64,000 nucleotides of DNA, from contig JAFGFJ010000006.1 of assembly GCA_016931155.1 (NCBI GenBank), forward strand, positions 314,896 to 378,895, written 5' to 3'. This DNA comes from Candidatus Dojkabacteria bacterium. GTDB lineage: Bacteria; Patescibacteriota; Dojkabacteria; B142; JAFGFJ01. Both the position numbers and the translations under genes were made by a program. The notes below the pieces were generated by a model. It worked only from the letters and a program-made list of their open reading frames with translations, had not been told where the DNA came from and did not search any database. Positions 88 through 39,141 of the stretch are shown here, in pieces. Position 1 is the stretch's first letter. Each line of letters begins with the position of its first letter.

Positions 88-1431
88 ATGGCAGTACAAT
101 CAGATTTTTTGGTGGCAATCAATCAGATTGCGGCAGAAAGAGGAATAGATGCGAATGAAGTACTTGAAGCAGTAAAGGCTGCTATACTTACCGCTTTCAG
201 GAGAGAGTATCCTATAGAAGAGGAGAATACAGATATTGAAGAGGAAAAAGAGAGTACAGAGGAAGGTCAATTGCTTAAGGTGGATATTAGTTCTGATACG
301 GGGCTTTTCCATGTTTATGCTGACAAAAAAGTAGTAATTGAGGTTGCCAATCCCGCAACACAGATAGGTCTCGAAGATGCACAGAAAATTGAGCCTAAAC
401 TGAAAGAGGGTGATCATATTGAAGTAGACATTACTCCAAAAGGAGACTTTGGAAGGGTGGCTGCTCAGGTTGCAAAGCAGGTAATTCTTCAGAACTTGAG
501 GGAGTTTGAGAAAGAAGCGGTTATGGAGGAATTTAAAGATAAGATGGGGCAACTTGATACAGGCATCATTCAGAGAATGGATGGTGATACTGTTGTTGTC
601 GAAATAAGAAGAGCAAGTGCAGTAATGGAGGCGGAAGACAGAATCCCAGGTGAATTTTACAGAAGTGGAGACAGATTAAAATTTCTTCTGAAAAAAATAA
701 AAAGAACTACTAAAGGGAAAATCCTTACTGTATCAAGATCAGATCCGGATTTTTTGAGAGCTCTTTTTGAACTTGAAGTACCAGAGTTGGTATCAGAAAG
801 TGTTGAAATAAAAGCAATTGCGAGAGAGGCAGGGTCAAGGTCAAAAGTAGCTGTCAGTTCAAATGTTGAAGGAGTTGATCCTATTGGATCGTTCGTCGGA
901 CAAAAAGGTGTGAGGATAAATGCTGTTATGAACGAATTAAAAGTCGGCAGTAACGAAGAGAAAATAGATATAATACTATGGGATCAGGATATTAAGCAGT
1001 TTATTTCAAATGCGTTTAGCCCTGCACAAGTTGTGAGTGTGAAGATTAATGATGAGAAGGCGAAATATGCGGAAGTAGTTGTTCCTGATGATCAGCTTTC
1101 ACTTGCTATAGGAAGGGAAGGGCAAAATGTTAGACTTGCTGCAAAGCTCACAGGTTGGAGACTGGATATTCAGGGCGAGACTATTAAAGTGAATCCGGAA
1201 AACGCTGGTTCTGAAGACGGGGATGCTGGAAATATTTCTGAAGTAAAAAAGAAAACTTCAGCTGTTACAAAGAAAAAGGATGAAGCTAAGGAAAAGAAGA
1301 TAAAAGAAAAGAACGGGAAAAAAGCTATAAAAAAGAAAACAAGTAGTACAAGTAAAAAAAGAAAGGCAGTTATAACGAGTCAAAAGAATAAAACGGGTAA
1401 AACAAAAAAAACAGTTAAGGCTAAGAAGTAA
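88..1431 (+). CDS. nusA: Transcription termination/antitermination factor NusA with a Lys-rich C-terminal tail
   Basis: NusA N-domain (FLVAINQIAAERGIDANEVLEAV), an S1-like region and KH regions (GREGQNVRLAAKLTGWRLDIQ). The ATG at 88 is preferred over the track's TTG at 46, which lies in a promoter-like AT tract. The last ~75 aa are K-rich low complexity. Confidence 0.93.
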   Translation: MAVQSDFLVAINQIAAERGIDANEVLEAVKAAILTAFRREYPIEEENTDIEEEKESTEEGQLLKVDISSDTGLFHVYADKKVVIEVANPATQIGLEDAQKIEPKLKEGDHIEVDITPKGDFGRVAAQVAKQVILQNLREFEKEAVMEEFKDKMGQLDTGIIQRMDGDTVVVEIRRASAVMEAEDRIPGEFYRSGDRLKFLLKKIKRTTKGKILTVSRSDPDFLRALFELEVPELVSESVEIKAIAREAGSRSKVAVSSNVEGVDPIGSFVGQKGVRINAVMNELKVGSNEEKIDIILWDQDIKQFISNAFSPAQVVSVKINDEKAKYAEVVVPDDQLSLAIGREGQNVRLAAKLTGWRLDIQGETIKVNPENAGSEDGDAGNISEVKKKTSAVTKKKDEAKEKKIKEKNGKKAIKKKTSSTSKKRKAVITSQKNKTGKTKKTVKAKK

Positions 1432-1442
1432 AAGGAGAAAAA

Positions 1443-1820
1443 ATGCTGATGCTGAAAGAATTATCTCCAAAAAAACATATTCCTATGCGTACTTGTATTG
1501 CAACTGGTATAAAGAAACCAAAAAACGATCTTATCCGTCTGGTCAAACTATCTAATGGACAAGTTGTAATTGATTTATTGGGAAAGGAGAGAGGTAGAGG
1601 GGCAAATTTAGATCTAAATACTGAAGCATTTGATTTGGCTGTTAAGAAAAATGTAATAAGTAAGGCTCTAAAACTTGAAAGAAATTTAACTGAAACGGAA
1701 ATTGAATATTTGAGAAAAGAATTTATTTCTGCTCTTGAGTTGAAAAAATTTCGTCAGGGTAAAAGGTCAGTTACGATCAGGGTGGATAAAGGAACTCTTG
1801 CCAGGAAACTGGCTGAATAG
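1443..1820 (+). CDS. ylxR: YlxR/RnpM (DUF448) family RNA-binding protein
   Basis: MRTCIATG...DLIRLV signature. AAGGAG lies upstream of the ATG. It holds the classic position directly after nusA. Confidence 0.85.
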   Translation: MLMLKELSPKKHIPMRTCIATGIKKPKNDLIRLVKLSNGQVVIDLLGKERGRGANLDLNTEAFDLAVKKNVISKALKLERNLTETEIEYLRKEFISALELKKFRQGKRSVTIRVDKGTLARKLAE

Positions 1821-1839
1821 CGAGTTATTTTTGTTTTGT

Positions 1840-2931
1840 CTATTCTGTGTTGTTTTCTATGTTTGTAAGTTGACCACAAGCAGCCTCAACGTCCTCTCCC
1901 ATTGTTACTCTAATTGTGGCAGGAATACCTGCTTCAGTAAGTATCTTTGCAAAACTATGTATTCTATTTCTACTACTTCGGCGAAAACTCCTGAAAGAAT
2001 ATTTATCTGGCAGAAAGCGAGAACAATTAGTCTGTTTATTTACAGTTTTTATATCATGATAAATGGTAATGGGATTGTAAGGGATGAGGTTTATGTGGGC
2101 AAGTCTTTGCCCTTTCAAAAGTGCAACTAGTTCCTGAGCGTGTTCTCCCCTGTCGTTTACATCGTGTATCATGATGTATTCGTAGCTTATTCTTTTGTTT
2201 CGAAGATCCATGTACCAGGTTGTTGCTTTTATGAGCTTATCAATAGGAAAAAGCCTGGCAATGGGCATAATTTTTTCTCTGAGCTTCTGATTTGGAGCGT
2301 GCAGTGAAATGGCAAACCTTCCTTTGAAACCATCTTTGACCAGTTTCTTGAATTGAGGAATATATCCACAGGTTGAAATTATTATTCTTCTTTTACTAAG
2401 TCCAAGTTTTGCAGGATCTGTAATAATGTCCAGTGACTTTTGAACTTCAGACAGATTAAGTAGTGGCTCGCCCATTCCCATAAAGACAACATTAGTAACC
2501 TTTTGAGGTTTTTTACAACTGAGGAGAAAACGATTGAAATATAATATCTGATCGATAATTTCCTGTGCTGAAAGATTTCCACCGAAGCCCATTTTCCCGG
2601 TTGCACAAAATATACAGCCTACGGGGCATCCAACCATACAGCTTACACAGACGGTATTCCTTTTGTCTTTATGTCTTATGAGTACTGTTTCAATTTTCTT
2701 TTTATCGCTTCTTTCAAATAAGAGCTTTATTGTTTTCGAATTTTTGGATTCAAGTTTTTTTATCTCCCTTAATGTCGAAAAGGTTATTTCTTGAGATAAT
2801 TTATTTTTTATGTCTTTTGGAAGAGTAGTGATTTCCTCAAAACTTCTGATAGGTTTCTGATAAAAGGCTTCCTCAATTTGCTTGAGTCGAAACCCGGGAA
2901 GATTATATTTATTTATGAATTTTCGAAACAT
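1840..2931 (-). CDS. rlmN: Radical-SAM 23S rRNA/tRNA adenine-C2 methyltransferase (RlmN/Cfr family)
   Basis: CxxxCxxC radical-SAM motif (GCPVGCIFCATGKMG), GMGEPLLN, and a C-terminal catalytic Cys context (EAACGQL). 363 aa is full length. Confidence 0.9.
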   Translation of the reverse strand: MFRKFINKYNLPGFRLKQIEEAFYQKPIRSFEEITTLPKDIKNKLSQEITFSTLREIKKLESKNSKTIKLLFERSDKKKIETVLIRHKDKRNTVCVSCMVGCPVGCIFCATGKMGFGGNLSAQEIIDQILYFNRFLLSCKKPQKVTNVVFMGMGEPLLNLSEVQKSLDIITDPAKLGLSKRRIIISTCGYIPQFKKLVKDGFKGRFAISLHAPNQKLREKIMPIARLFPIDKLIKATTWYMDLRNKRISYEYIMIHDVNDRGEHAQELVALLKGQRLAHINLIPYNPITIYHDIKTVNKQTNCSRFLPDKYSFRSFRRSSRNRIHSFAKILTEAGIPATIRVTMGEDVEAACGQLTNIENNTE

Positions 2932-2937
2932 AAAGGG

Positions 2938-2943
2938 ATTATA
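2938..2943 (-). promoter_or_regulatory. Candidate -10 element (TATAAT on the minus strand) 6 nt upstream of the rlmN ATG (leaderless geometry)
   Basis: Plus-strand ATTATA at 2938-2943 reads TATAAT on the minus strand. Six nt then precede the ATG at 2931-2929. Confidence 0.35.
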
Positions 2944-2982
2944 CCCTACATTATAAAGTGCAGACAGGGTAGGAGCTGATTT

Positions 2983-3084
2983 ATGGATTTTTTTGGGACA
3001 GAAGATGAAGGTTATTTATTTGCTTCACACTTTATTGAAAATTTCCTACCACTCTGTTACTATTACCCAGCTTTTTTGAAGTAG
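2983..3084 (+). CDS. Candidate 33-codon small ORF (MDFFGTEDEGYLFASHFIENFLPLCYYYPAFLK), unknown function
   Basis: TATAAA at 2952-2957, AGGAG at 2971-2975 (7 nt before the ATG at 2983), stop TAG at 3082-3084, then a terminator hairpin at 3090-3122. No homology recognised, and it could be a chance ORF. Confidence 0.25.
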   Translation: MDFFGTEDEGYLFASHFIENFLPLCYYYPAFLK

Positions 3085-3089
3085 GATGT

Positions 3090-3122
3090 ACAATAACCTG
3101 TGAAGAGGGTTGTTGTTTTTTT
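3090..3122 (+). terminator. Terminator/attenuator-like hairpin immediately upstream of fusA
   Basis: 9-bp stem ACAATAACC(3090-3098)/GGTTGTTGT(3108-3116) with one G-U pair, a 9-nt loop, and 7 T (3116-3122, the first being the last stem base). Confidence 0.5.
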
Positions 3123-3154
3123 GATCAAAAATTTAAATTATATTTATAAATTTA

Positions 3155-5302
3155 ATGGCAGGTACAGATTACACATCGGTAAAAGATAAAAATCTTTACA
3201 GGAATATTGGAATTATTGCTCATATTGATGCTGGGAAAACTACTACCACTGAGCGTATTCTCTTTTTTACGGGAAAGAAGCACAAACTTGGAGAAGTTCA
3301 CGAAGGAGCTGCGGAAATGGACTTTATGGACCAGGAAAAGGAAAGAGGAATAACTATCCAGTCTGCTGCTACTACTGCTTTCTGGGAAGTTGATAATACC
3401 AGATATAGGGTAAATATTATTGATACTCCCGGGCATGTTGATTTTACAGCTGAAGTTGAGAGGTCATTGAGGGTACTTGATGGAGCGGTTGTTGTATTCG
3501 ATGGGAAGGAGGGGGTTGAACCGCAGTCAAGTAAAGTGTGGCTTCAGGCGGAAAAATATTTTGTACCAAGGCTTTGCTATATAAATAAACTTGACGCAAC
3601 TGGTGGCGATTTTTTCAAAAGCCTGGAAAGTATTCAAAATGAACTCAACAAAAATGCATTTGCGGTTCAGATTCCTGTAGGTACTGAGTCAAACTTTAAT
3701 GGGATTATAGATCTTGTTGATATGAAGGCTCATATGTATAAGGATGAGCTTGGGAAAGAGATAGAAGTATCCGATATTCCGGATGATCTTAAGATAAAGG
3801 CTGAGGAATATAGAGAAAAAATGATTGAGAAAATTGCTGATGCGGATGATGTCATTGCTGAAAAGTATCTTGGCGGGGAGGAAATATCCCGTGAAGAAAT
3901 TGTTGCGGGTATTAGAAAAGGAACTGTCTCTGGTGTGATTTTTCCGGTTTTGGCAGGATCTTCGTACAAAAATAGAGGTATTCAGCTTATGCTTGATTGT
4001 GTTTGCAGGTATCTGCCGTCTCCCCTTGAAAAGATTCAGGTAATAAAAAACGAAGAGACTGGAGAGCAGACAAAATATATTGGAGAGGTAGTTGGGAAAA
4101 ATCCAAAGACTGATGCTGATGAACACAGGAAGGCATCAAATGATGAACCTTTTTCCGGACTTGTTTTTAAAATTGCAATGGATACTCATGTGGGCTCGCT
4201 GGCCTTTATAAGAGTATATTCAGGTAAGCTTCAGGCTGGAACGTATGTGTACAATTCATCTGTCGATAAGAAAGAAAGAGTGGCTAGAATTCTTTTGATG
4301 CATGCAAATCATAGAGAGGAAGCACCTGAGATAAGTGCTGGAGATATTGCGGCTCTTGTAGGGATTAAAGAATCCTATACTGGAAATACAATTTGTGATG
4401 AAAATAATCCTGTTGTTCTCGAGAGTATCAAGTTCTCTGATCCTGTTGTCTCGCTTGCGATTGAGCCAAAAACAAAATCAGATCAGGAGAAAATGGGTAC
4501 AGCTCTTAATAAGCTTTCGCAGGAGGATCCTACTTTTAAAATTTCGACAAATGAAGAAACGGGGCAGACAATTATTTCTGGGATGGGAGAACTACATCTG
4601 GAAGTAAAAGTGGATATTATGAGAAGGGACTACAATGTGGATGTTAATACAGGTAAACCGCAAGTAGCTTACAGAGAGACCGTAGAAGGAGAAATTGAAC
4701 ATAGAGAGCTTCTCAAAAAGCAGACAGGAGGTGCGGGACAATTTGCCGATCTCACTATCATTCTTTCTCCGAATGAGCGAGGGAAGGGGTATGAATTTAT
4801 TGATAAAATCAAGGGTGGAGCGATTCCAAGAGAATTTATTCCTTCAGTTGATAAAGGAATTCAACAGGCACTTTCTACAGGGGTAATCGGAGGATTTCCG
4901 GTAGTGGATGTGAAAGTTGAGCTGGTTGATGGATCCTACCACGAGGTTGACTCAAATACCGATACATTCAAAATTGCAGCGAACAGAGGTTTCAAGGAAG
5001 CAATGAAGAAGGCTTCTCCTATTCTACTTGAACCAATTATGAAGCTTGTAGTGAATACTCCGGATGAATTTGCAGGAGACATAACAGGAGCGGTTGCTTC
5101 AAAGAGAGGACAGATTAAGAAAATGGAATCAAAAGGTAATTACCAGGAAATCGAAGCAGAGGTTCCTCTTGGTAATATGTTTGGCTGGACGGGGGACATG
5201 AGGTCTATGACTAAAGGAAAAGCGAATAGTGTGATGGAATTTTCGCATTACCAGAAAGTACCTGAAAATCTTGTGGATCAACTACTCGGAAAGAGCGAGT
5301 AG
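3155..5302 (+). CDS. fusA: Translation elongation factor G
   Basis: G1 AHIDAGKTT, G3 DTPGH, G4 NKLD. All five EF-G domains are present over 715 aa. Confidence 0.97.
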   Translation: MAGTDYTSVKDKNLYRNIGIIAHIDAGKTTTTERILFFTGKKHKLGEVHEGAAEMDFMDQEKERGITIQSAATTAFWEVDNTRYRVNIIDTPGHVDFTAEVERSLRVLDGAVVVFDGKEGVEPQSSKVWLQAEKYFVPRLCYINKLDATGGDFFKSLESIQNELNKNAFAVQIPVGTESNFNGIIDLVDMKAHMYKDELGKEIEVSDIPDDLKIKAEEYREKMIEKIADADDVIAEKYLGGEEISREEIVAGIRKGTVSGVIFPVLAGSSYKNRGIQLMLDCVCRYLPSPLEKIQVIKNEETGEQTKYIGEVVGKNPKTDADEHRKASNDEPFSGLVFKIAMDTHVGSLAFIRVYSGKLQAGTYVYNSSVDKKERVARILLMHANHREEAPEISAGDIAALVGIKESYTGNTICDENNPVVLESIKFSDPVVSLAIEPKTKSDQEKMGTALNKLSQEDPTFKISTNEETGQTIISGMGELHLEVKVDIMRRDYNVDVNTGKPQVAYRETVEGEIEHRELLKKQTGGAGQFADLTIILSPNERGKGYEFIDKIKGGAIPREFIPSVDKGIQQALSTGVIGGFPVVDVKVELVDGSYHEVDSNTDTFKIAANRGFKEAMKKASPILLEPIMKLVVNTPDEFAGDITGAVASKRGQIKKMESKGNYQEIEAEVPLGNMFGWTGDMRSMTKGKANSVMEFSHYQKVPENLVDQLLGKSE

Positions 5303-5766
5303 ACAAATTCCGGTAGGAGTTCCATTTGTCCATTATCAACTCCAAAGTTTCTCTTTATGGCTAAGTAACTTTATTGTCTGAGAGATTTCTATGGATAAAT
5401 GATCGCATTCATGATCTATCTTTATGGCAGCTAATTCCAATTGAAGCATTGATAAATACTTTTTTTATTACCGATTTCTTTTCTTACAAAATCTACCAGC
5501 GGTCAATGAAAGGGCTAATTGAATAATTGTTTTTACTGAAAAATTCAAATCCCATATCAAGCATGCTGGTGCAATACAAAGCAGTATTAATTCTTTGACT
5601 TATAAAGTCAAAGATATGATTTTACAGTATGGAGTGAAGAATAAGGAGAAATACTGGTCTGAAAATTTCTCGTAATAACTTGATTATTAGTCCAGGATTT
5701 GATATAAATTTGGATCGAGAACACAAATTCCTCGCGTGTTCTTTTTTAACTGCCTTTGACAGCACT

Positions 5767-5795
5767 TGCGGGTGGTTGACCCAACTAATATAATG
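5767..5795 (+). promoter_or_regulatory. Candidate sigma70-like promoter for tuf
   Basis: TTGCGG (5767-5772), a 17-nt spacer, then TATAAT (5790-5795), about 60 nt upstream of the tuf ATG. Confidence 0.3.
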
Positions 5796-5857
5796 AGGAG
5801 TTTTTGATTTAAGAGTATTTAACTCCAAACGTATTATTATTTTTAAAATTACAAAAA

Positions 5858-7039
5858 ATGGCAGACACAAAGTTTGATAGAACAAAGCCACATGTCAATA
5901 TCGGTACTCTAGGTCATGTTGACCATGGAAAGACTACTTTACTTCGAGGTGTTCTTGAAGTATTCGGTGGAGAAAGAAAAGAAGAGTTCAAGGAGAAACT
6001 TGATAAATCTCCTGAGTCAAGAGCAAAGAGCGTTACTATTTCCGTTGCTCATGTTGAAGCTGAGACAGATAGCAGGCATTATGCAATTGTTGACTGTCCT
6101 GGACACAGAGATTACATCAAAAACATGATTACAGGTGCGGCTCAAATGGATGGTGCAATTATTGTTGTTTCAGCAAGTGATGGTCCAATGCCTCAGACAA
6201 AAGAGCATGTCCTTCTTGCCAAGCAAGTAGGAGTGAAGAACTTTGTCGTATTTATAAATATTTTTGACGACTCAATGGATACTGAGCTTGTAGATCTCGT
6301 TGAAGAAGAGGTAAGGGATCTTTTAACTAAGTATGACTTTGATGGAAAAGGAGTAACAGTTGTGAGAGGTTCTGCTCTGAAGGCAGAAAAAGGAGAAGCG
6401 GAAGGAATTGAAGCAATAAAGAAACTGATGGAAGCTGTGGATAAGGATATTCCAATGCCTGAGAGGCCTGTTGATCAACCACTTCTTATGTTTATTGAAG
6501 ATGTTTTCTCGATTTCAGGGAGAGGTACCGTTGCTACGGGAAGGATTGATAGGGGAAAGATTAAGGTGAACGATGTAGTTGAGCTTGTTGGACTTTCAGA
6601 GAAACCAGTTGATGTTACTGTTACTGGAGTTGAAATGTTTAATAAACAACTCGATGAGGGTATGGCAGGAGACAATGTTGGTATTTTAATGAGAGGGCTT
6701 AAGAGAGAGGACGTTGAGAGAGGACAGGTACTTGCAGCAAAGGGTTCTATTAAACCTCATACTGAATTTGAAGCTCAGGTTTATATTCTAAAGAAAGAAG
6801 AAGGTGGAAGAACTACTGCATTCTTTTCAGGATACAAGCCACAGTTTTATATGAGAACTACTGATGTGACTGGAGATGTAACATTGAAGGAAGGAACGGA
6901 AATGGTTATGCCTGGGGATGATGCTGAAATCTCTATCAAGCTTATCACACCAGTGGCGGTTGAAGAGGGAATGAGATTTGCAATTAGAGAGGGAGGAAGG
7001 ACAGTAGGAGAAGGAATTATTACTAAGGTTATTAAGTAA
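5858..7039 (+). CDS. tuf: Translation elongation factor Tu with a divergent G4 motif
   Basis: [14 protein letters not shown] and GSALKA are present over a 393-aa full length. The canonical NKxD reads NIFD (codons 6257-6268). Confidence 0.95.
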
Positions 7040-7047
7040 GAAACTGA

Positions 7048-7080
7048 AGTTGAGCTGGAAAAAACCAGCTCAACTTTTTT
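7048..7080 (+). terminator. Strong rho-independent terminator after tuf
   Basis: Perfect 11-bp stem AGTTGAGCTGG(7048-7058)/CCAGCTCAACT(7065-7075), A6 loop, T-tract to 7080. The track's 7050 ORF start reads through this hairpin and is rejected. Confidence 0.8.
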
Positions 7081-7100: not shown

Positions 7101-7400
7101 ATGCAAAGGATAAGAATAAAAATAAAAGGATATGATTATCGTGTAGTTGATAAGGCTGCTCAGCAGATTATTGAAACTGCTGTTAGAACTGGGGCAAAGA
7201 CAGCTGGTCCAATTCCTTTGCCTACGAAGTTGAGGAGATGGGCTGTTCTGCGTTCTCCTCATGTTGATTCCAAATCGAAAGAGCACTTTGAGATGAGGAT
7301 TCACAAGAGGCTTGTGGATATAATTGAGCCAACAGGCCAGACGATTGATTCTTTAACGCATTTGCAACTTGCGGCGGGGGTTGGTATTGAAATAAAGTAA
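7101..7400 (+). CDS. rpsJ: 30S ribosomal protein S10 (NusE)
   Basis: [17 protein letters not shown]...[25 protein letters not shown]. The internal ATG at 7101 gives the canonical ~100 aa. Confidence 0.95.
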
Positions 7401-7479
7401 CAAACTTTTTGAACTGACCTTGGTTAATACTGTTCTTTTCAGGATAAGTTACCAGGACTCTGAAACTTCAGGGATCTTG

Positions 7480-7504
7480 GGCTTCTCAAAAAGAAGCCTT
7501 TTTT
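7480..7504 (+). terminator. Terminator/attenuator-like hairpin between rpsJ and rplC
   Basis: Stem GGCTTCT(7480-7486)/AGAAGCC(7492-7498), 5-nt loop, T6 (7499-7504), 8 nt before the rplC ATG. Confidence 0.5.
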
Positions 7505-7512
7505 AATAGAAA

Positions 7513-8082
7513 ATGAAAAAAACTTTAATTACAGAAAAAAAAGAGATGACGAGCCTATTCGATGGAGATGGGAAGTTTGTATCTGTTACTGTACTTGAGG
7601 TAGGGGATAATGTTGTTTTTGGGACAAGAATTGAAGAAAAGGATGGTTATAGTGCTTTTATTATTAAAGATGAGAAATCTGGATTGGTAAAAGAGGTGAG
7701 AGTGGAAAGTGATGAGGAAGTAAAGGATATGAAGGTGGGGGATAAATTGGAGATAGACTTTAGTGAGGGAGATACGGTTTCTGCAACGGGAGTAACAAAA
7801 GGAAAAGGTTTTCAAGGAGTAGTCAAAAGATGGGGATTTAAGGGTGGACCAAAAACTCATGGACAATCAGATAGACAAAGACATCCTGGCTCTATTGGAG
7901 GTGGGACTACGCCGGGAAGAGTTTATAAAGGGAAGAAAATGGCGGGAAGGATGGGTGCAGTTACAAGAACGATCAGAGGATTGAGGATTATAAAAATAGA
8001 TAAGGAGAACAATTTAATAGCGGTAAAAGGTGCGATACCTGGAGGTAAAGGCGGATTGGTTTTGCTTAAGTCGACCAAATAA
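7513..8082 (+). CDS. rplC: 50S ribosomal protein L3
   Basis: GKGFQGVVKRWGFKGGPKTHGQSDRQRHPGSIG motif, in S10-operon position. Confidence 0.95.
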   Translation: MKKTLITEKKEMTSLFDGDGKFVSVTVLEVGDNVVFGTRIEEKDGYSAFIIKDEKSGLVKEVRVESDEEVKDMKVGDKLEIDFSEGDTVSATGVTKGKGFQGVVKRWGFKGGPKTHGQSDRQRHPGSIGGGTTPGRVYKGKKMAGRMGAVTRTIRGLRIIKIDKENNLIAVKGAIPGGKGGLVLLKSTK

Positions 8083-8084
8083 CA

Positions 8085-8609
8085 ATGAAAGCTTTGAAAT
8101 TAGTGCCCTATTTGGTACTTGTTTCTCTCATATCAGTAGGAGTGTACTTACTGATAGGAATAACAAATCAGGAGAAATTGCAAAGTTATTCTGACTTTAT
8201 TGAAACAAGTAGTGGCAAAGTACTTGAAGGGATAAACAAACAGAGTGAACAGATAAACAGAATTGGAAATATTTCGGATATTGAAGAAGGAGTAATAACG
8301 GATAATGAGGATATTTCAAGTAAGTTTAAGACTTTACTTGAAGCAGAAAAAAAAGCCTGGCAGGAATTAAAAAAGCCTGAAGGGTCTAAGGAAACTCAGA
8401 AACAAATGGAAGAGTTTTTTAAGGGTGCAGAAGAAAGCAATAAGCAGTTTGATGAGGCAATGATGGAAATAAAAATACTGAAAAAAGAAGATGAGCTTCT
8501 AAGTACAATTAAGGGCTACAATGAGAAAGTAACAAAATTTGCAGAAACATACGAAGAGCTTATTGAAAACTTAAATAATTATATTGATGAAAGTAACTTT
8601 ATACGATAA
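8085..8609 (+). CDS. Hypothetical N-terminally membrane-anchored helical protein inserted between rplC and rplD
   Basis: A 174-codon open frame in an AT-rich genome. One N-terminal TM helix (LVPYLVLVSLISVGVYLLIGI) followed by a K/E-rich helical region. It starts 2 nt after the rplC stop and overlaps the rplD start by 26 nt. No family recognised. Confidence 0.75.
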   Translation: MKALKLVPYLVLVSLISVGVYLLIGITNQEKLQSYSDFIETSSGKVLEGINKQSEQINRIGNISDIEEGVITDNEDISSKFKTLLEAEKKAWQELKKPEGSKETQKQMEEFFKGAEESNKQFDEAMMEIKILKKEDELLSTIKGYNEKVTKFAETYEELIENLNNYIDESNFIR

Positions 8610-9402
8610 AACAGGAAAAAAGACTGAGAAAAAGATTGAGCTTGACTCTGCGATTTTTGGGGCAAAGGTTAATAAAAAACTATTAAGCCAGGCTGTCTAT
8701 ATATATCTTTCAAATCAAAGGACAGCCAATCCCCAGACTAAAGACAGGGGTGAAGTTAGTGGTGGAGGAAGAAAGCCATGGAAGCAGAAAGGGACGGGAA
8801 GAGCCAGACACGGTTCAACAAGAAGTCCGATCTGGAGAGGAGGAGGAGTTACTTTTGGTCCCACAAATCAAAAGAATTATAAAAAGACTATGCTTAAGAA
8901 AATGAAAAGAGCGGCAATTAGGTCAGCTTTTAGTTATCAGACTGAAGAGAAAAAAGTGTTGGTAATGGAAAAACCCGATTTCAAAGAAGGAGCACTTACA
9001 AAACAAGTCTTGAAAATTTTAAATAATTTGAGAATTGATAAGAAAGTGTTGTTTGTTCAGGGAGATATTGACCAAAACTTTGTTAAAGCAGTGAGTAATC
9101 TCAAAACTGTTTTGGTAAAACCGGTAAACGAACTTAACACTTATTCAGTATTAAATACACAATGGCTGATTTTTACAGATGAAAGTTTGGGAAAGGTTAG
9201 CGAGTTTTGGGGAGCAGAAAAAGGAAAAACTTTAAATACAGAGAAAGGGGAAGAGAAGAAGCTCAGCTCTGTTCAAAGAGATTTAGTAAAAAAGGAAACA
9301 AAAAGAGTCAAGGATGAGAGTGAGAAAAAGCCTTTGAAAAAGGTTGCAAAAAAATCGACTATAAAGAAAGTTAAAATAATAAAATCAAAAACAAAGAAAT
9401 AA
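8584..9402 (+). CDS. rplD: 50S ribosomal protein L4 with a Lys-rich C-terminal extension
   Basis: GGGRKPWKQKGTGRARHGSTRSPIWRGGG motif. About 70 extra K/E-rich residues at the C-terminus. Confidence 0.95.
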   Translation: MMKVTLYDKTGKKTEKKIELDSAIFGAKVNKKLLSQAVYIYLSNQRTANPQTKDRGEVSGGGRKPWKQKGTGRARHGSTRSPIWRGGGVTFGPTNQKNYKKTMLKKMKRAAIRSAFSYQTEEKKVLVMEKPDFKEGALTKQVLKILNNLRIDKKVLFVQGDIDQNFVKAVSNLKTVLVKPVNELNTYSVLNTQWLIFTDESLGKVSEFWGAEKGKTLNTEKGEEKKLSSVQRDLVKKETKRVKDESEKKPLKKVAKKSTIKKVKIIKSKTKK

Positions 9403-10606: not shown

Positions 10607-10912
10607 ATGAGTAGATCATCGAAAAAGGGACCATATATTGACGAAAGGCTTTTAGAGAAAATTAAAAGAGCCAGAGATACTGGTGATAAGAAACCAATCA
10701 AGACATGGGCAAGATCTTCCAGTATTTCACCCGAGATGGTTGGAATTAATTTTGAGGTACACAATGGAAAAGAATTTGTTAAGGTGTTTGCAACTGAGTC
10801 AATGGTTGGGCATAAATTAGGAGAATTTTCACTAACCAGGAAGTTCACTGGTCATAGTAAGAAAGGTAAGATTGCTAAGGCAACAGGAACAGCTGGAAGA
10901 GTTGAGACATAA
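10607..10912 (+). CDS. rpsS: 30S ribosomal protein S19
   Basis: [11 protein letters not shown]...[11 protein letters not shown]...[15 protein letters not shown]. Confidence 0.96.
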
Positions 10913-10916
10913 AAAT

Positions 10917-11402
10917 ATGGAAAAAGAATTGGTGTGTGCAAAAAACAGATATGTTGGGAATGCCCCTAGAAAGGTGAGGCTGGTAGCGGGTTTGGTTCGT
11001 GGGAAAAATGCACTTGAGGCTATTGAAATGCTTAAATTTGTTAATAAAGCTGCTTCTCTCCCTGTTAAGAAGGTGTTGAATTCGGCGATTGCCAATGCAA
11101 CCTTCAATAAAGGATGGGACAAGAAACAGCTAAAGGTATCAAAAATTACTGTTGATGAAGCTCCTTCTTTCAAAAGAGGAAGAGCAGTTTCAAGAGGAAG
11201 ATATAGAAGAATCTTAAAAAGGAACAGTCACATAACTGTTGTTTTGGAGCAGATTTCTGAAGAGAAAAACACTGAAACAGAAAAAGGCGAAGTAAAGAGG
11301 TCTGAAGTAGGAAAAGTTGAGATGAACAATGATAAAGATAGAAAAATAGATAAGAGTAAAATTAAAACAACTAAATCTGTTAATAAAAAAAATGGGAAAT
11401 AA
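10917..11402 (+). CDS. rplV: 50S ribosomal protein L22 with a K/E-rich C-terminal extension
   Basis: APRKVRLVAGLVRGKNALEAIEML motif. The ATG at 10917, just after the rpsS stop, is preferred over the track start at 10872, which overlaps rpsS. Confidence 0.93.
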   Translation: MEKELVCAKNRYVGNAPRKVRLVAGLVRGKNALEAIEMLKFVNKAASLPVKKVLNSAIANATFNKGWDKKQLKVSKITVDEAPSFKRGRAVSRGRYRRILKRNSHITVVLEQISEEKNTETEKGEVKRSEVGKVEMNNDKDRKIDKSKIKTTKSVNKKNGK

Positions 11403-17078: not shown

Positions 17079-18551
17079 ATGCTGGAAACACAAAAAAAAA
17101 GCTCAGGAATGCCTGCAAGTATTTTTAGTCGCACAGTAAGAAAAGTCTCAGGAGAGACTAAGAAGAGTGGCATTTTTACTAAATTCCAAAGGACGTTTGC
17201 AAATAAAGATATAAGGAATCGTTTCCTTTTCACTATGTTGATGGTTTTGGTATTCAGATTATTGTCTGCTGTTCCACTTCCAGGAATTGACCCTGCAGTT
17301 TTTAAAGAATTTTTTCAAGGTACTCCTTTCAGTAATATCTTTACCATAGTTACTGGAGGAAGGCTTGATAATCCGTCTATTGTAGCAATTGGGCTGGCTT
17401 CTTATATTAATGCCTCAATTATGATTCAACTGTTTACAACTGTTATTCCCTCTCTTGAGGAAATGTCAAAAGAAGGGGAAAGAGGAAAGCAAAAATTGAA
17501 TCAGATAACCAGAGTATTGACTGTTCCACTGACAGTGCTGCAGTCCGTAGTGATTTATACTATTTTGAAAAACAGTGCTGGTATTTCAAATCTCGTCGCG
17601 GAGTCATCGGTTTTGGATGTAGTTACTATGATTACGACACTGACTGCCGGGACGATGCTCCTGATGTGGATATCTGAGATTATTTCAGAAAGTGGGATCG
17701 GAAATGGCTCGTCAATAATAATTTCCGCTGGTGTTCTTGCAGTTATCCCGAGTTTTATTTCACAGGATTTCCAAAGTGTTGAACTCAATTTTAAATTTCT
17801 TTTAGAAGGAAAACTTGAAGTTCTATGGAGCTCAAATATGCTTTTGATCTATGCGATAATTGTGGGGCTTGTTGTTTTACTATTAGGTATAGTTTTTATG
17901 TCGGAGGCAACAAGAAAACTATCTATCCAGTATGCAAGAAGAGTAAGGGGTGGTGTGGCGGGATTTCAAAATACTTTTCTTCCGATTAAGCTTAACCAGG
18001 CAGGGGTGATGCCTGTAATATTTGCATCATCAATACTCATTCTGCCGCAGATACTTTCTCAGTTTGTGGTCAGTTCCTTTGAATCGGGTAAGTTTTATGA
18101 TATTGCCAATGCAATAGGAAATTCCTTTCTTTCAGACTATGGATCATTTGGATACAATTTAACCTACTTCTTTGCAATTATTGGGTTTACTTTCTTTTAT
18201 ACTTTTGTTGTTCTAAACCCGAATGATACAGCGGACAACCTGAAGAAAAGTGGAGGCTTCATACCTGGGATTAGACCTGGGACTTCAACTGCCAGTTATA
18301 TTACGAAAGTTATGATCAGATTGACTATTGTCGGGGGTATTTTCCTCGGGGCAATAGCTCTTGCTCCTTCTCTTATTAATCAATTTGCGACTAATCAGTT
18401 CCTTGGAGAAGCTGCAAATTATGGGAGATCGACTCTTTTTTCCGGAATTGGGGGTACCAGTCTTTTGATTTTGGTAGGAGTAATACTTGATACAAAACGA
18501 AAGATTGAATCTATGGCAGTTACACGTAGCTACGAGCATTACAAAGACTAA
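17079..18551 (+). CDS. secY: Preprotein translocase subunit SecY
   Basis: 490 aa, roughly 10 TM segments, typical SecY blocks (SIVAIGLASYINASIMIQL, GIGNGSSIII), in operon position. Confidence 0.95.
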   Translation: MLETQKKSSGMPASIFSRTVRKVSGETKKSGIFTKFQRTFANKDIRNRFLFTMLMVLVFRLLSAVPLPGIDPAVFKEFFQGTPFSNIFTIVTGGRLDNPSIVAIGLASYINASIMIQLFTTVIPSLEEMSKEGERGKQKLNQITRVLTVPLTVLQSVVIYTILKNSAGISNLVAESSVLDVVTMITTLTAGTMLLMWISEIISESGIGNGSSIIISAGVLAVIPSFISQDFQSVELNFKFLLEGKLEVLWSSNMLLIYAIIVGLVVLLLGIVFMSEATRKLSIQYARRVRGGVAGFQNTFLPIKLNQAGVMPVIFASSILILPQILSQFVVSSFESGKFYDIANAIGNSFLSDYGSFGYNLTYFFAIIGFTFFYTFVVLNPNDTADNLKKSGGFIPGIRPGTSTASYITKVMIRLTIVGGIFLGAIALAPSLINQFATNQFLGEAANYGRSTLFSGIGGTSLLILVGVILDTKRKIESMAVTRSYEHYKD

Positions 18552-36162: not shown

Positions 36163-39141
36163 TTAGAAGGTTTTATGTTCTTTAGCATTGATTAGTCCGC
36201 ACTTCTTATATTTTAGACCGCTACCGCAAGGGCAAGGGTCATTTCTTCCGATTTTTAGTTTTGTGGTAGTATCCTGTTGTTTACCTCTCTGTAAATATTT
36301 CCCTTCTTTTTTTTGTTTGATTTTTAAATCATTAGGCTGTTGTTTTGTTTGCATTTCTCTATCTTCTATAAGTATATTCTCTATTTGTGAAATATTTGTG
36401 GATACGCTCTCCTGTGTTTTCTGTAATATCCTTTTAATCTTCAAAATTATTCTTGCAAAATTGGAGTCAACATTACCAATAAATTGTTCAAATAATAGGA
36501 ACCCTTCATTTTTGTATTCGACAAGTGGTTCTCTTTGAGCATATCCTCTAAGACCTATTCCTTGCCTGAGGTCTGTCATGCTATCGAGGTGTTCTGTCCA
36601 GCCGTGATCCATACTTTCAAGATAATAGTTTTTTACAATAAGGGGATAGTCTTTACCATATTCCTCAACTTTAACTCTCAACATTCTTCCAACCAAATCT
36701 TTAAGGTAGCTAGTTATCTCATTTAACTTTTTTCCTTCTATTTCCATTTCCAGGTACTCTCCAGCTTTTGTTGCATCAGTTAATTTCTTCTTTGTTGGAA
36801 TTTTAGTGACAAGCTCATCTTCGAATAAGTCCAGGAAATCCGCTATCACTTGTTTTCTGTCCAAATCATCACTTCTTTCAGGGATAAAGTGTTTATTAAC
36901 AATAAAGTCGACTTCTTCCTCCAATAACCTTTGTAATCTTTCGGTGAGCTTCATTGTTTTCTCCTTCGTCTTCAGTATTTCTTCTTTCTTGTACAATGCT
37001 GCAAGATGATCCGTTTCTTCCAAAATCGTTCTTCTCTTTTTGTAATAGATTTCTCTTTGCTTATTTACTACGTCATCATACTGAACAAGCTGCTTTCTTA
37101 CATCAAAATTTGTACCCTCCATCCGCTTTTGTGCGTTTTCAATTGCGCCACTTATCATTCCAGATTCAATGGGCATATCTTCAGGAATATTTGTCATTTC
37201 CATTAATTTTTGTACAATTGGACCGCCCTGTATTCTCATGATTTCATCGTCAAGTGCGACGTAAAACCTGGATACTCCAGGTTCGCCCTGTCGTCCTGAT
37301 CTTCCTCTGAGCTGATTGTCGATCCTTCTAGCTTCATGCCTTTCTGATCCAATTATCTGTAGTCCTCCTGTTTTAACGACCTCTTCAAACTCCTTATCTG
37401 TAGCATTGAATCCACCGAGTTTGATATCCGTTCCCCTACCAGCCATATTTGTTGCAACTGTTACTGCAGATTTCTTTCCTGCATTTGCGACTATGTTTGC
37501 TTCTCTTTCATGGTATTTTGCATTTAGTACTTCGTGATCTACTCCTTTTTTATCAAGGAGCCTTGACAGATATTCCGACTTTTCAATTGAAGTGGTTCCG
37601 ATAAGCACTGGTTGTCCGTCCTTGTTTTTTTCCGTTACTTCTTCTGCTATTGCATTGAATTTTGCTTCCTGGTTTTTGTAGACTCTGTCAGGCAGATCTT
37701 TTCTTATTATCGGCTTGTTTGTAGGTATGGAAAGTGAGTCTAGAGAATATATCTTAAAAAATTCTTCGGCCTCTGTCATGACTGTCCCTGATCCTCCTGA
37801 TAGCACTTTGTATAATCTAAAAAGATTTTGGAATGTAATCGTTGCGAGTGTCTTTGACTCTCTTTTTATCTCCACTCCTTCTTTTGCTTCTATGGCTTGA
37901 TGAAGACCTTCTGAATATCTCCTGCCGGCTAGAACTCTTCCGGTAAATTCGTCAACTATCATGACTTCACCATCTCTAACCAGGTAATGATCATCCAATT
38001 TGTATAAGGTTTCAGCCTTCAGGGCATTCTCAAGATGGTGTGCCAATCTATAATCTTCCCATATGTTTTTTACTCCAAGCAATTTTTCTGCTTTTTCAAT
38101 CCCTTCATCAGTTAAAACAGATGAGTGTGCTTTTTCATCCAAAACATAGTGTCGCTCGGGTTCTAGATTCTTTACAAGTTTTGCAAATTTGATATAAAGT
38201 TCGTTTGATTGTTCAGCTGGGGCAGAAATTATCAGGGGAGTTCGTGCTTCGTCTACAAGAATAGAGTCGGCCTCGTCAACAATGCAAAAGTACAGTTCTC
38301 CCTGAACAATGTCTTCAGTAGTTCGTACCATATTGTCTCTGAGATAATCAAAGCCAAACTCATTATTTGTTCCATAAATCACATCACACTTATATGCTTC
38401 CTGTTTTGATACCTCAAGGAGATTTAGACCATCTGAGTCTCCAGGGTTCATTACCTTTATTTTTTTTCTTTGCTTATACGCTTCTTCATTTTTGAATTCC
38501 TTTATCTGCTCATCAGTAATATATTTGTAGGATTTCTCAGGTGTAATTACTCCTACGCTAAATCCCAACTCAGAGAGAATGTGACCTGCGTATTCACCAT
38601 CTCTTTTTGCAAGATAATCGTTTACAGTGACAACATGTGATCCTCTTCCGGTAAGACTGTATAAGGCTGCAGGCATCTGAAAAACGAGAGTTTTTCCTTC
38701 TCCGGTTTTCAGCTCTACTAACTTAAAACCTTGTGCAAGAATCGCACTGGCCAGAAGCTGAACATCAAACTGTCTAATAAATTTTTTTCCTTTACGCATT
38801 TTTCTTTTGGACACCTCTCTAATCATTGCGTAAACTTCAGGAAGAAATTCAAGCAATTTATCTTGTATGGCTTTTTCGTATTGAGGCATATCTTTTCCTT
38901 TTTCCGGAGTTTTTATTGACATTTTGTCTTCTGAAGGCACTTTTTCTACTAAAGTGTTCAATTCATTTCTTATTGTATCAAGCCTTTTTTGGAAGGATTT
39001 GATGTCTTTTTTTTCGAAATCTGGTTCAAGAGAATTAATTTTCTCGACAATGGGCCACGCAGCTTTTATCTGCTTTTCATTAGAGTCGAAAAATTTTGAA
39101 AAAATATTCAGGAACATTTGTGGAATTAAATCAAACATCAT
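36163..39141 (-). CDS. secA: Preprotein translocase ATPase SecA
   Basis: DEAD-like motor blocks (LKTGEGKTLV, IVDEADSILVDEARTPLIIS, TNMAGRGTDIKLGG) and a C-terminal zinc finger CPCGSGLKYKKCG. The true start may be the ATG at 39117 (MFLNIFSKFF), since TGCTATCAT overlaps the 39141 ATG. Confidence 0.96.
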   Translation of the reverse strand: MMFDLIPQMFLNIFSKFFDSNEKQIKAAWPIVEKINSLEPDFEKKDIKSFQKRLDTIRNELNTLVEKVPSEDKMSIKTPEKGKDMPQYEKAIQDKLLEFLPEVYAMIREVSKRKMRKGKKFIRQFDVQLLASAILAQGFKLVELKTGEGKTLVFQMPAALYSLTGRGSHVVTVNDYLAKRDGEYAGHILSELGFSVGVITPEKSYKYITDEQIKEFKNEEAYKQRKKIKVMNPGDSDGLNLLEVSKQEAYKCDVIYGTNNEFGFDYLRDNMVRTTEDIVQGELYFCIVDEADSILVDEARTPLIISAPAEQSNELYIKFAKLVKNLEPERHYVLDEKAHSSVLTDEGIEKAEKLLGVKNIWEDYRLAHHLENALKAETLYKLDDHYLVRDGEVMIVDEFTGRVLAGRRYSEGLHQAIEAKEGVEIKRESKTLATITFQNLFRLYKVLSGGSGTVMTEAEEFFKIYSLDSLSIPTNKPIIRKDLPDRVYKNQEAKFNAIAEEVTEKNKDGQPVLIGTTSIEKSEYLSRLLDKKGVDHEVLNAKYHEREANIVANAGKKSAVTVATNMAGRGTDIKLGGFNATDKEFEEVVKTGGLQIIGSERHEARRIDNQLRGRSGRQGEPGVSRFYVALDDEIMRIQGGPIVQKLMEMTNIPEDMPIESGMISGAIENAQKRMEGTNFDVRKQLVQYDDVVNKQREIYYKKRRTILEETDHLAALYKKEEILKTKEKTMKLTERLQRLLEEEVDFIVNKHFIPERSDDLDRKQVIADFLDLFEDELVTKIPTKKKLTDATKAGEYLEMEIEGKKLNEITSYLKDLVGRMLRVKVEEYGKDYPLIVKNYYLESMDHGWTEHLDSMTDLRQGIGLRGYAQREPLVEYKNEGFLLFEQFIGNVDSNFARIILKIKRILQKTQESVSTNISQIENILIEDREMQTKQQPNDLKIKQKKEGKYLQRGKQQDTTTKLKIGRNDPCPCGSGLKYKKCGLINAKEHKTF

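Follow-up and report, generated by a model that had tools for sequence, protein, structure and literature searches.

A gene for a predicted membrane-anchored four-helix-bundle protein lies between rplC and rplD in the S10 operon of a Candidatus Dojkabacteria genome, at positions 8085..8609 on the forward strand of the 64,000-nucleotide stretch analysed here (the window). The open reading frame (ORF) has an ATG start and encodes 174 amino acids plus stop. Judged from comparative sequence data, it is a genuine protein-coding gene under purifying selection, and it founds a small, previously unnamed family that is restricted to part of the Dojkabacteria. On balance, we consider it probable that the product is a bitopic envelope protein with an extracytoplasmic acidic bundle, carried as a passenger of the S10 operon and synthesized constitutively in proportion to the ribosomes. 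An identical protein, MBN1915947.1, is present at NCBI with the annotation "hypothetical protein JW796_03070" under Candidatus Dojkabacteria bacterium, which agrees with the Patescibacteria named in the first-pass annotation. Literature searches yielded no account of this family or of any gene in the rplC–rplD slot.

The rplC–rplD slot and the family that occupies it

The gene order in the window is nusA, ylxR, a radical-SAM gene (minus strand), fusA, tuf, rpsJ, rplC, the ORF, rplD, rplW, rplB, rpsS and onward. The cluster's first gene, rpsJ (S10; 7101..7400, forward strand, from the ORF list), encodes 99 amino acids from an internal ATG, a start that was placed by N-terminal alignment and by the gene length in relatives, whose S10 genes also encode 99 amino acids and match PF00338. 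It is followed on the same strand by rplC (L3, 189 amino acids; 7513..8082), which matches Pfam PF00297 Ribosomal_L3 with an E value of 1.5e-20 and whose product is 74% identical to L3 of locus L081 and 60% identical to L3 of locus L084. The rplC stop codon TAA occupies 8080–8082, and the ATG of the ORF begins 2 nt later (TAA-CA-ATG), as the first-pass annotation had stated. Downstream, rplD (L4, 271 amino acids; 8587..9402, forward strand; Pfam PF00573 Ribosomal_L4, E 4.7e-62) begins within the end of the ORF and in a different frame, and its product carries a Lys-rich C-terminal extension of ~65 amino acids; both L4 and L22 of the window have long basic tails. The overlap between the ORF and rplD had been put at 26 nt, a figure that arises because the first rplD start listed by the ORF finder is a TTG at 8584. 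Alignment of the L4 N-termini of nine relatives, which follow the pattern M-[KQN]-[VAIT]-x-[LVK]-[YF] (alignment consensus MKV.LYDK.GKK), instead places the start at the ATG at 8587 (MKVTLYDKTGKK), and the overlap is thereby reduced to 23 nt. This two-frame coding stretch (8587..8609, forward strand) covers the last seven codons of the ORF plus its stop, and the first eight codons of rplD.

Every family member with readable context is located between rplC and rplD and on the same strand, and no member was found in any other context. The slot is thus occupied in the window, in L081, L084, L085 and L090, and in the contig that encodes P0127, so that a search for a syntenic gene in related S10 operons, as proposed in the first-pass annotation, returns a homologue in the same position in five further loci. 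Locus L081, an ENA contig that encodes the closest L4 in the database (69% identical), has a 175-residue gene whose product is 38% identical to that of the window ORF. In L084 (GCA_034680565.1), rplC spans 5370–5990, the ORF 6001–6534, and rplD starts at 6531; in L085 the tail of rplC is followed by the ORF and then rplD, and in the P0127 contig the order is S10, L3 and then the ORF. A more distant lineage, L090, has a 185-residue gene of the same design in the same slot. The junctions are always tight in the window, L081, L084, L085 and L082. Here the distance from the rplC stop to the ORF start is -1 to +10 nt, and that from the ORF stop to the rplD start is -23 to +3 nt, with ATGA as a frequent form of overlap. 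In L090, by called-gene coordinates, one side is looser: 34 nt separate the ORF start from the end of rplC, while the overlap with rplD is 20 nt, which brings the range over all homologues to -23 to +34 nt.

Occupation of this slot is unusual. As background we used 80 loci from other phyla, obtained by an L4 scan of genome contigs that was dominated by the universal KPWKQKGT motif and had no Dojkabacteria among its matches. The gap between rplC and rplD is at most 127 nt in 79 of these loci; the remaining one, a Parcubacteria locus, has an unrelated lipoprotein-like ORF on the minus strand between the two genes. The earlier view of the ORF as an unusual insertion into a conserved gene string is borne out by the intact rplC–rplD adjacency in these 79 loci. 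Within Dojkabacteria-like loci, rplC directly abuts rplD in six (L083, L086, L087, L088, L089 and L091). An outgroup-rooted neighbour-joining tree of L4+L23+L2+S19 unites the window, L081 and L084 in a clade (bootstrap 100%), places L082 and L090 on deeper branches, and has the insert-free loci as the sister group. Monophyly of the insert-bearing loci is unsupported in this tree (bootstrap 2.5%), and only the clade of the window, L081 and L084 is robust. An old gain of the ORF followed by loss would fit this topology, the deep nodes of which are unsupported.

At the local base composition, an open frame of 174 codons has a chance probability of ~5e-8, and the other five frames over the ORF contain 6–25 stops. 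The frame is also open, over 173–185 codons, in the four further loci with DNA (L081, L084, L085 and L090). Mismatches increase from codon position 2 through position 1 to position 3, being 0.43, 0.31 and 0.66 at positions 1, 2 and 3 between the window and L081, and pN is 0.39–0.48 compared with a pS of 0.63–0.82 in the pairs with DNA; since dS is saturated in all these pairs, the codon-position and pN/pS patterns were used instead of dN/dS. Where the first-pass annotation had allowed for a frame missing from relatives or for a signature of non-coding sequence, we thus find syntenic homologues, a conserved ORF and a coding pattern. Constraint on the ORF is weaker than on the neighbouring genes: its dN is 0.55–0.77, as against 0.17–0.28 for L2, L3 and L23, and the protein is only 25–38% identical between loci whose L2 and L3 are 60–77% identical, that is, it evolves 2–3 times faster than the flanking ribosomal proteins. 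A spurious gene, either a chance ORF in an expanded rplC–rplD spacer or the decaying remnant of an insertion, would account for the missing match to any curated family, the low identity among members, the singleton status of all clusters, and a GC content of 0.32 that is slightly lower than the 0.35–0.39 of the neighbours. It does not account for an open frame of near-constant length in at least five independently sampled loci with saturated synonymous sites, for close members that align nearly without indels, for the codon-position pattern and pN below pS, or for a confident fold prediction from just six sequences. Considering also the low chance probability of the frame, a spurious origin is already contradicted by the comparative data and is highly improbable.

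The relatives were identified in an exhaustive HMMER (phmmer) scan of 1.84 billion representative proteins with the ORF protein as query. Four full-length relatives were obtained, with E values of 7e-32 to 1e-6 and alignments spanning residues 1–170: P0122 (175 amino acids, 38% identity, E 7e-32), P0123 (177 amino acids, 31%, E 2e-19), P0124 (176 amino acids, 32%, E 2e-17) and P0125 (173 amino acids, 27%, E 1e-6). A profile search added P0127. In total, the window protein has six close homologues of 173–177 amino acids and a distant one of 185 amino acids in L090, and each of the seven close members forms a singleton cluster. The L090 protein aligns with the family with an hhalign probability of 96.9% (E 1.8e-10, 159 columns). 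In L082 the slot holds two small ORFs that both encode a transmembrane (TM) segment. The second of these (153 amino acids) aligns with an hhalign probability of 62% and matches the L090 protein by BLASTP at 8e-7 over the N-terminal 50 amino acids, and is probably a very divergent relative of the family; its companion ORF encodes 105 amino acids.

In the alignment of six close members (A3), the invariant residues are Met1, Lys2, Gly19, Tyr35, Ser42, Gln53, Ile57, Asn58, Phe111, Asn119, Leu132, Tyr145 and Asn146. Met1, Lys2, Tyr35, Ser42, Asn58, Leu132 and Tyr145 are still invariant when L081 and L090 are included to give eight members (A5). The family motifs are Y-x2-[FY]-[IV]-x2-S-[ST] and Q-S-x2-I-N in helix 1, and Y-N in helix 4. 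The window protein shares the family traits of a length of 173–185 amino acids, a basic N-tail of the MKxxK type, and a single N-terminal TM helix. Outside this set, a word-indexed protein search with the single sequence returned the ORF protein alone, no relatives were found in metagenome contigs (scanned with the single protein and then with alignment A4) or in viral contigs, and sequence searches of Pfam, NCBIfam, PHROGs and the PDB gave no family match, only sub-threshold hits. These hits are inconsistent and of coiled-coil or compositional character (Taxilin, ZorA, spanin, designed bundles), and P0125 probably owes its JGI label, "chromosome segregation ATPase", to a similar artefact. On the strength of the negative PHROGs and viral scans, we rejected the idea that the gene is phage-derived or serves defence.

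Predicted structure and topology of the product

The first-pass annotation had described one N-terminal TM helix followed by a K/E-rich helical domain. Hydropathy and composition agree with this description, the part after the hydrophobic segment being acidic and rich in K and E. The hydrophobic segment, the sole one in the protein, covers approximately residues 6–27 with Kyte–Doolittle values up to 2.2, and is predicted to form a TM helix or uncleaved signal anchor (codons 6–27; 8100..8165, forward strand) preceded by the MKxxK N-tail. AlphaFold2 (AF2), run with a six-sequence alignment, gives a model with a pLDDT of 88 and a pTM of 0.78, the five models all being in the range 83–88. An unbroken helix of residues 7–58 leads the membrane segment straight into the first helix of the bundle (28–58), and together with the further helices 68–94, 102–131 and 135–170 this produces a compact up-down four-helix bundle (codons 28–170; 8166..8594, forward strand). 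The protein ends four residues after helix 4. The helical character proposed earlier for the soluble domain is therefore retained in the model, and the domain is more exactly described as a compact four-helix bundle. With good confidence, the product is predicted to comprise a short Lys-rich N-tail and one TM helix that continues into an acidic bundle.

All members have an acidic soluble domain, with a pI of 4.1–5.0 (4.6 for the window protein). It is free of Cys in all members of alignment A5, while the probable L082 relative has two. The N-tail, MKALK in the window protein, contains 2–3 Lys/Arg and no acidic residue in any member except P0125, which has one Glu, and the 15 residues that follow the TM helix have a net charge of -2 to +1. 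By the charge-difference rule this favours an N-in/C-out orientation with an uncleaved signal anchor, although several members give no clear answer when only Lys+Arg are counted (N side 2, C side 2–3). A lipoprotein is ruled out by the missing Cys, and a cleaved signal peptide by the missing AXA-like site. Subunit b of F-type ATP synthase resembles the ORF protein in size and N-terminal TM helix, but PF00430 was not among the Pfam matches listed, and the model is a compact bundle rather than an extended stalk.

Estimated from the helix boundaries, the pairs Tyr35/Phe111, Ser42/Asn119 and Gln53/Tyr145–Asn146 would sit at equal heights across the helices, and these are most simply understood as conserved packing layers. 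As for the fold, Foldseek returned no match at E <= 1e-3. Among natural proteins the top matches are 4k0d (TM 0.73–0.78), the surface lipoprotein OspC and the S. aureus lipoprotein 2ap3, and periplasmic sensor domains like those of Tar/Tsr and histidine kinases come closest in fold. Because the four-helix bundle is very common and designed bundles score as well as the natural matches, fold similarity gives little information on function.

The ligand-binding bundles of chemoreceptors and sensor kinases (Tar/Tsr, PcaY, Adeh_2942) share with the modelled ORF protein an up-down four-helix bundle that is continuous with TM1, a likeness at the level of a very common fold that designed bundles match equally well. 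Tar/Tsr-type receptors have in addition a second TM helix and a HAMP/signalling or kinase module, which the ORF protein lacks. The Pfam family 4HB_MCP does not match the window protein at E <= 1, and is not among the 25 families listed of the 37 that match six members at E <= 0.1. S. aureus 2ap3, Bacteroides DUF3829 and Borrelia OspC, which all figure in the structural matches, are, as the ORF protein is predicted to be, small anchored proteins with an all-helical extracytoplasmic domain. Unlike the ORF protein, which has a TM helix, they are lipid-anchored; they have no sequence similarity to it and occur in unrelated genomic contexts, and few of them have an assigned function. Grouping the ORF protein with such anchored helical ectodomains is thus suggested by analogy only. 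Ribophorin I of the OST complex is eukaryotic and has its bundle on the cytosolic side, whereas the ORF protein is acidic and its charges argue for the opposite orientation; the structural match to ribophorin I is no better than that of hundreds of other bundles.

Expression within the S10 operon

Because the ORF is on the same strand as rplC and rplD, with tight junctions that leave no room for a promoter or terminator of its own, it is likely to be co-transcribed with both genes on the S10-operon mRNA. This claim of the first-pass annotation has the strongest support obtainable from sequence: the two junctions measure +2 and -23 nt, and neither a promoter-like nor a convincing terminator-like site stands out above shuffle expectation within the ORF or at its edges. 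Both the TAA-CA-ATG junction and the 23-nt overlap could plausibly allow reinitiation. Translational coupling and a high, growth-rate-linked expression of the ORF, as proposed in the first-pass annotation, may also apply. Shine–Dalgarno sites precede only 2 of 44 genes in this genome, and since the genome hardly uses such sites, their absence at the ORF is no specific evidence for coupling.

The 112-nt spacer between rpsJ and rplC contains a conserved RNA motif and a hairpin, both on the forward strand. The motif (7416..7463) consists of GGTTAATACTGTT ... GGATAAGTTACC around a variable hairpin and was delineated with RNAalifold and a covariance model. From five loci RNAalifold predicts 14 pairs, six of which have compensatory changes, and the covariance model (R1) matches only the rpsJ–rplC spacer, in the window, L083, L084, L088 and L090; Rfam has no match for the motif. 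The second element, a terminator-like hairpin GGGCTTCTCAAAAAGAAGCCT followed by a T-run (7479..7505), ends 8 nt before the rplC ATG and is a possible attenuator. Equivalent GC hairpins with T-runs are present in the same spacer in L082, L083, L084, L088, L090 and L091. Together, the motif and the hairpin look like a candidate ribosomal-protein leader or attenuator that would govern the ORF together with L3 and L4. Because these elements precede rplC, attenuation may act on the expression of all three genes (rplC, the ORF and rplD), which would then not be simply constitutive.

Non-ribosomal passengers are familiar from other ribosomal-protein operons, with secY, adk, map and infA in the spc operon and rpoA in the alpha operon. 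The ORF resembles these as a non-ribosomal gene in a ribosomal-protein transcription unit with tight or overlapping junctions, and by analogy it is probably translationally coupled to the ribosomal-protein genes in the same manner. The spc and alpha passengers are near-universal and have known functions, whereas the ORF is confined to part of one candidate phylum and is fast-evolving. In addition, the ORF splits the rplC–rplD pair, while the known passengers sit in the spc and alpha operons. The concept of non-ribosomal passengers in such operons is already known; what is new is a family of narrow distribution, placed in a slot that is nearly always empty elsewhere.

Functional interpretation

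In the reading that we consider probable on balance, the Lys-rich tail would be kept in the cytoplasm and the bundle would be exported by the Sec machinery. This would give a protein of the surface or envelope whose anchoring resembles that of a chemoreceptor's ligand-binding domain, though with no output domain attached; it would bind a partner or ligand at the cell surface and act outside the ribosome. Location on a ribosomal-protein transcript, with termination–reinitiation at the tight junctions, would result in constitutive synthesis at a fixed ratio to the ribosomal proteins. As for the Sec route, SecA is identified in the window by Pfam (36163-39141, minus strand), and a 490-residue ORF of the size expected for SecY lies at 17079-18551 in the spc part of the cluster. 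Fast evolution, acidity, patchy distribution and a signal-anchor-like N-terminus fit an exposed envelope protein better than a component of the ribosome. Bacterial ribosomal proteins are basic, RNA-binding, broadly conserved and soluble, while the ORF protein has a pI of 4.6 and a TM helix, and is absent from the sister loci. The main point left is the strict positional conservation, which the reading as an envelope passenger explains only in part; a slot that is kept across such divergence may point to a functional tie with L3/L4 or with the ribosome.

Such a tie would be direct if the protein were a ribosome-to-membrane tether, or a factor in assembly or targeting of the large subunit, with the N-tail outside and the acidic bundle in the cytoplasm. 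The bundle would bind the Lys-rich extensions of neighbouring ribosomal proteins and hold ribosomes at the membrane, in analogy to the TM-plus-cytosolic helical bundle of ribophorin I and to mitochondrial Mba1/Mdm38. The strictly kept slot, with frames that overlap or abut and thereby imply production tied to L3/L4, agrees with this, as do the Lys-rich tail of L4 in the window and the ambiguous topology of several members when only Lys+Arg are counted. However, the conserved and purely basic N-tail favours the N-in orientation, the protein evolves considerably faster than the ribosomal proteins that it would bind, and six related lineages do without the ORF, some of which have equally long L4 tails (L086, 262 amino acids; L087, 263 amino acids), so that the ORF does not co-vary with its proposed L4 partner. 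We regard a tether as unlikely, if the least unlikely of the alternatives that give the protein a function. An extracytoplasmic accessory to export retains the N-in orientation; here the protein would be an anchored helical holdase or scaffold at the SecYEG exit, where YfgM/PpiD of E. coli provide the comparison, and the place of its gene among ribosomal-protein genes would have the same explanation as that of secY in the spc operon. The predicted architecture is of the same kind, an N-terminal anchor with an acidic all-helical ectodomain, and translocon genes in ribosomal-protein operons have a precedent, to which the SecY-sized ORF of the window would conform. Yet Pfam, NCBIfam and PDB searches revealed no sequence likeness or specific fold likeness to YfgM, PpiD, YajC or SecG, and a general export factor would be expected in more lineages, which makes this function doubtful and a shade less likely than a tether.

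A slimmer chance is given to a stand-alone sensor or co-receptor, in which the bundle would bind a small ligand or a binding protein and signal sideways through the TM helix to a separate kinase or transporter. Chemoreceptor and histidine-kinase ligand-binding bundles are the best natural structural matches, with TM1 likewise running straight into helix 1, and several polar residues are invariant in the six close members (Tyr35, Ser42, Gln53, Asn58, Asn119, Tyr145 and Asn146), four of them (Tyr35, Ser42, Asn58 and Tyr145) among the eight aligned members as well. Judged from the helix boundaries, these would be located at matching heights on helices 1, 3 and 4. Buried layers that fix the helix register explain the invariant polar residues equally well, however, and the protein has no second TM helix, HAMP, kinase or MA domain, in line with the negative 4HB_MCP search; a regulatory sensor at ribosomal-protein levels would also be unusual.

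In a broader form, the protein might be a lineage-specific link between the translation machinery and the membrane, either as a large-subunit tether or as a translocon partner, produced in a fixed ratio with L3 and L4 because it would be their working partner. The RNA motif and terminator upstream of rplC would then be a shared autoregulatory switch. We consider this about as doubtful as the export function, but contact with the ribosome or translocon would, if true, make the ORF product a new player in translation or export that is specific to this lineage, and a true link between translation and membrane would add a new, non-universal component of translation or co-translational export in an ultra-small episymbiotic bacterium.

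As for the envelope-passenger reading, cells of the Candidate Phyla Radiation have few regulators and lead an envelope-dependent life on a host, so that it is reasonable to propose the ORF protein as an abundant envelope component coupled to growth. Naming the family and searching for it is now feasible, and it is a concrete target for metaproteomics; the ORF could also serve as a marker for its subgroup of Dojkabacteria. Bacterial genomics and phylogenomics treat the string rpsJ–rplC–rplD–rplW as an almost invariant landmark, and a conserved gene within it shows that even this unit can gain a member where genomes are reduced, as in the Candidate Phyla Radiation.

A candidate RNA element between rpsJ and rplC

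The spacer between rpsJ and rplC is unusually long in the window (112 nt). Within it, positions 7416–7505 hold a conserved RNA motif followed by a hairpin and T-run, and the motif recurs in the same spacer of four Dojkabacteria-like relatives (L083, 3265–3336; L084, 5228–5296; L088, 2280–2335; and L090, 1684–1736). A variable hairpin is flanked by the conserved sequences GGTTAATACTGTT and GGATAAGTTACC, and RNAalifold assigns 14 base pairs to the motif, 6 of them with compensatory changes. Downstream, a GC hairpin with a T-run ends 8 nt upstream of the rplC start. A search of the motif against Rfam gave no match, and the matches of a covariance model built from it were confined to the rpsJ–rplC spacer of five Dojkabacteria-like loci. 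The element resembles a ribosomal-protein leader or a transcription attenuator, of a kind not described before.

A strong terminator-like hairpin, with a 13-bp stem and a T-run, is also located immediately 3' of tuf (7046–7077; tuf ends at 7039), about 25 nt upstream of rpsJ, for which the inferred start is 7101. With one such hairpin after tuf and another before rplC, rpsJ is therefore flanked on both sides by terminator-like hairpins.

Occupants of the rplC–rplD slot and other genes in the cluster

Among the 80 background loci from other phyla, a large rplC–rplD gap was found in one, that of Candidatus Parcubacteria RS_13_30 (L071, 520 nt). This gap carries a 78-residue ORF on the opposite, minus strand (3657–3893) with a lipoprotein-like signal (…LLISC), which is unrelated to the family of predicted four-helix-bundle proteins encoded in the slot in the window. 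L3 from the same locus has a long, acidic and Lys-rich C-terminal tail. In the Dojkabacteria-like locus L082 (GCA_015657915.1), the slot holds two small, overlapping ORFs with TM segments, of 105 (3245–3562) and 153 residues (3543–4004). The longer is probably a very divergent relative of the window family, and a search for relatives of the shorter detected none.

Opposite-strand genes break the translation-gene cluster both in the window, where a 363-residue radical-SAM protein (1840–2931, minus) is encoded between ylxR and fusA, and in L084, where a 684-residue protein without a Pfam match (1266–3320, minus) lies between fusA and tuf. In L081, a 139-residue gene without a Pfam match (4777–5196) is found between L16 and S17, at the expected place of L29.

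Extended ribosomal proteins and translation initiation

Long Lys-rich C-terminal extensions are present in window L4 (271 residues; 8587–9402) and L22 (about 176 residues from the ORF call; 10872–11402). Four Dojkabacteria-like L4 homologues (P0007, P0021, P0032, and P0121; 283–301 residues) have, besides Ribosomal_L4, a precomputed match to PF03118, the RNA polymerase alpha C-terminal domain, which suggests that L4 is fused to a helix-hairpin-helix domain in these proteins.

Of 44 genes in the window (starts from 5858 to 59212), only 2 are preceded by a Shine-Dalgarno-like motif at a distance of up to 20 nt; the start regions are A/T-rich in place of such a motif. Translation initiation in this organism therefore seems to proceed without SD pairing for most genes.
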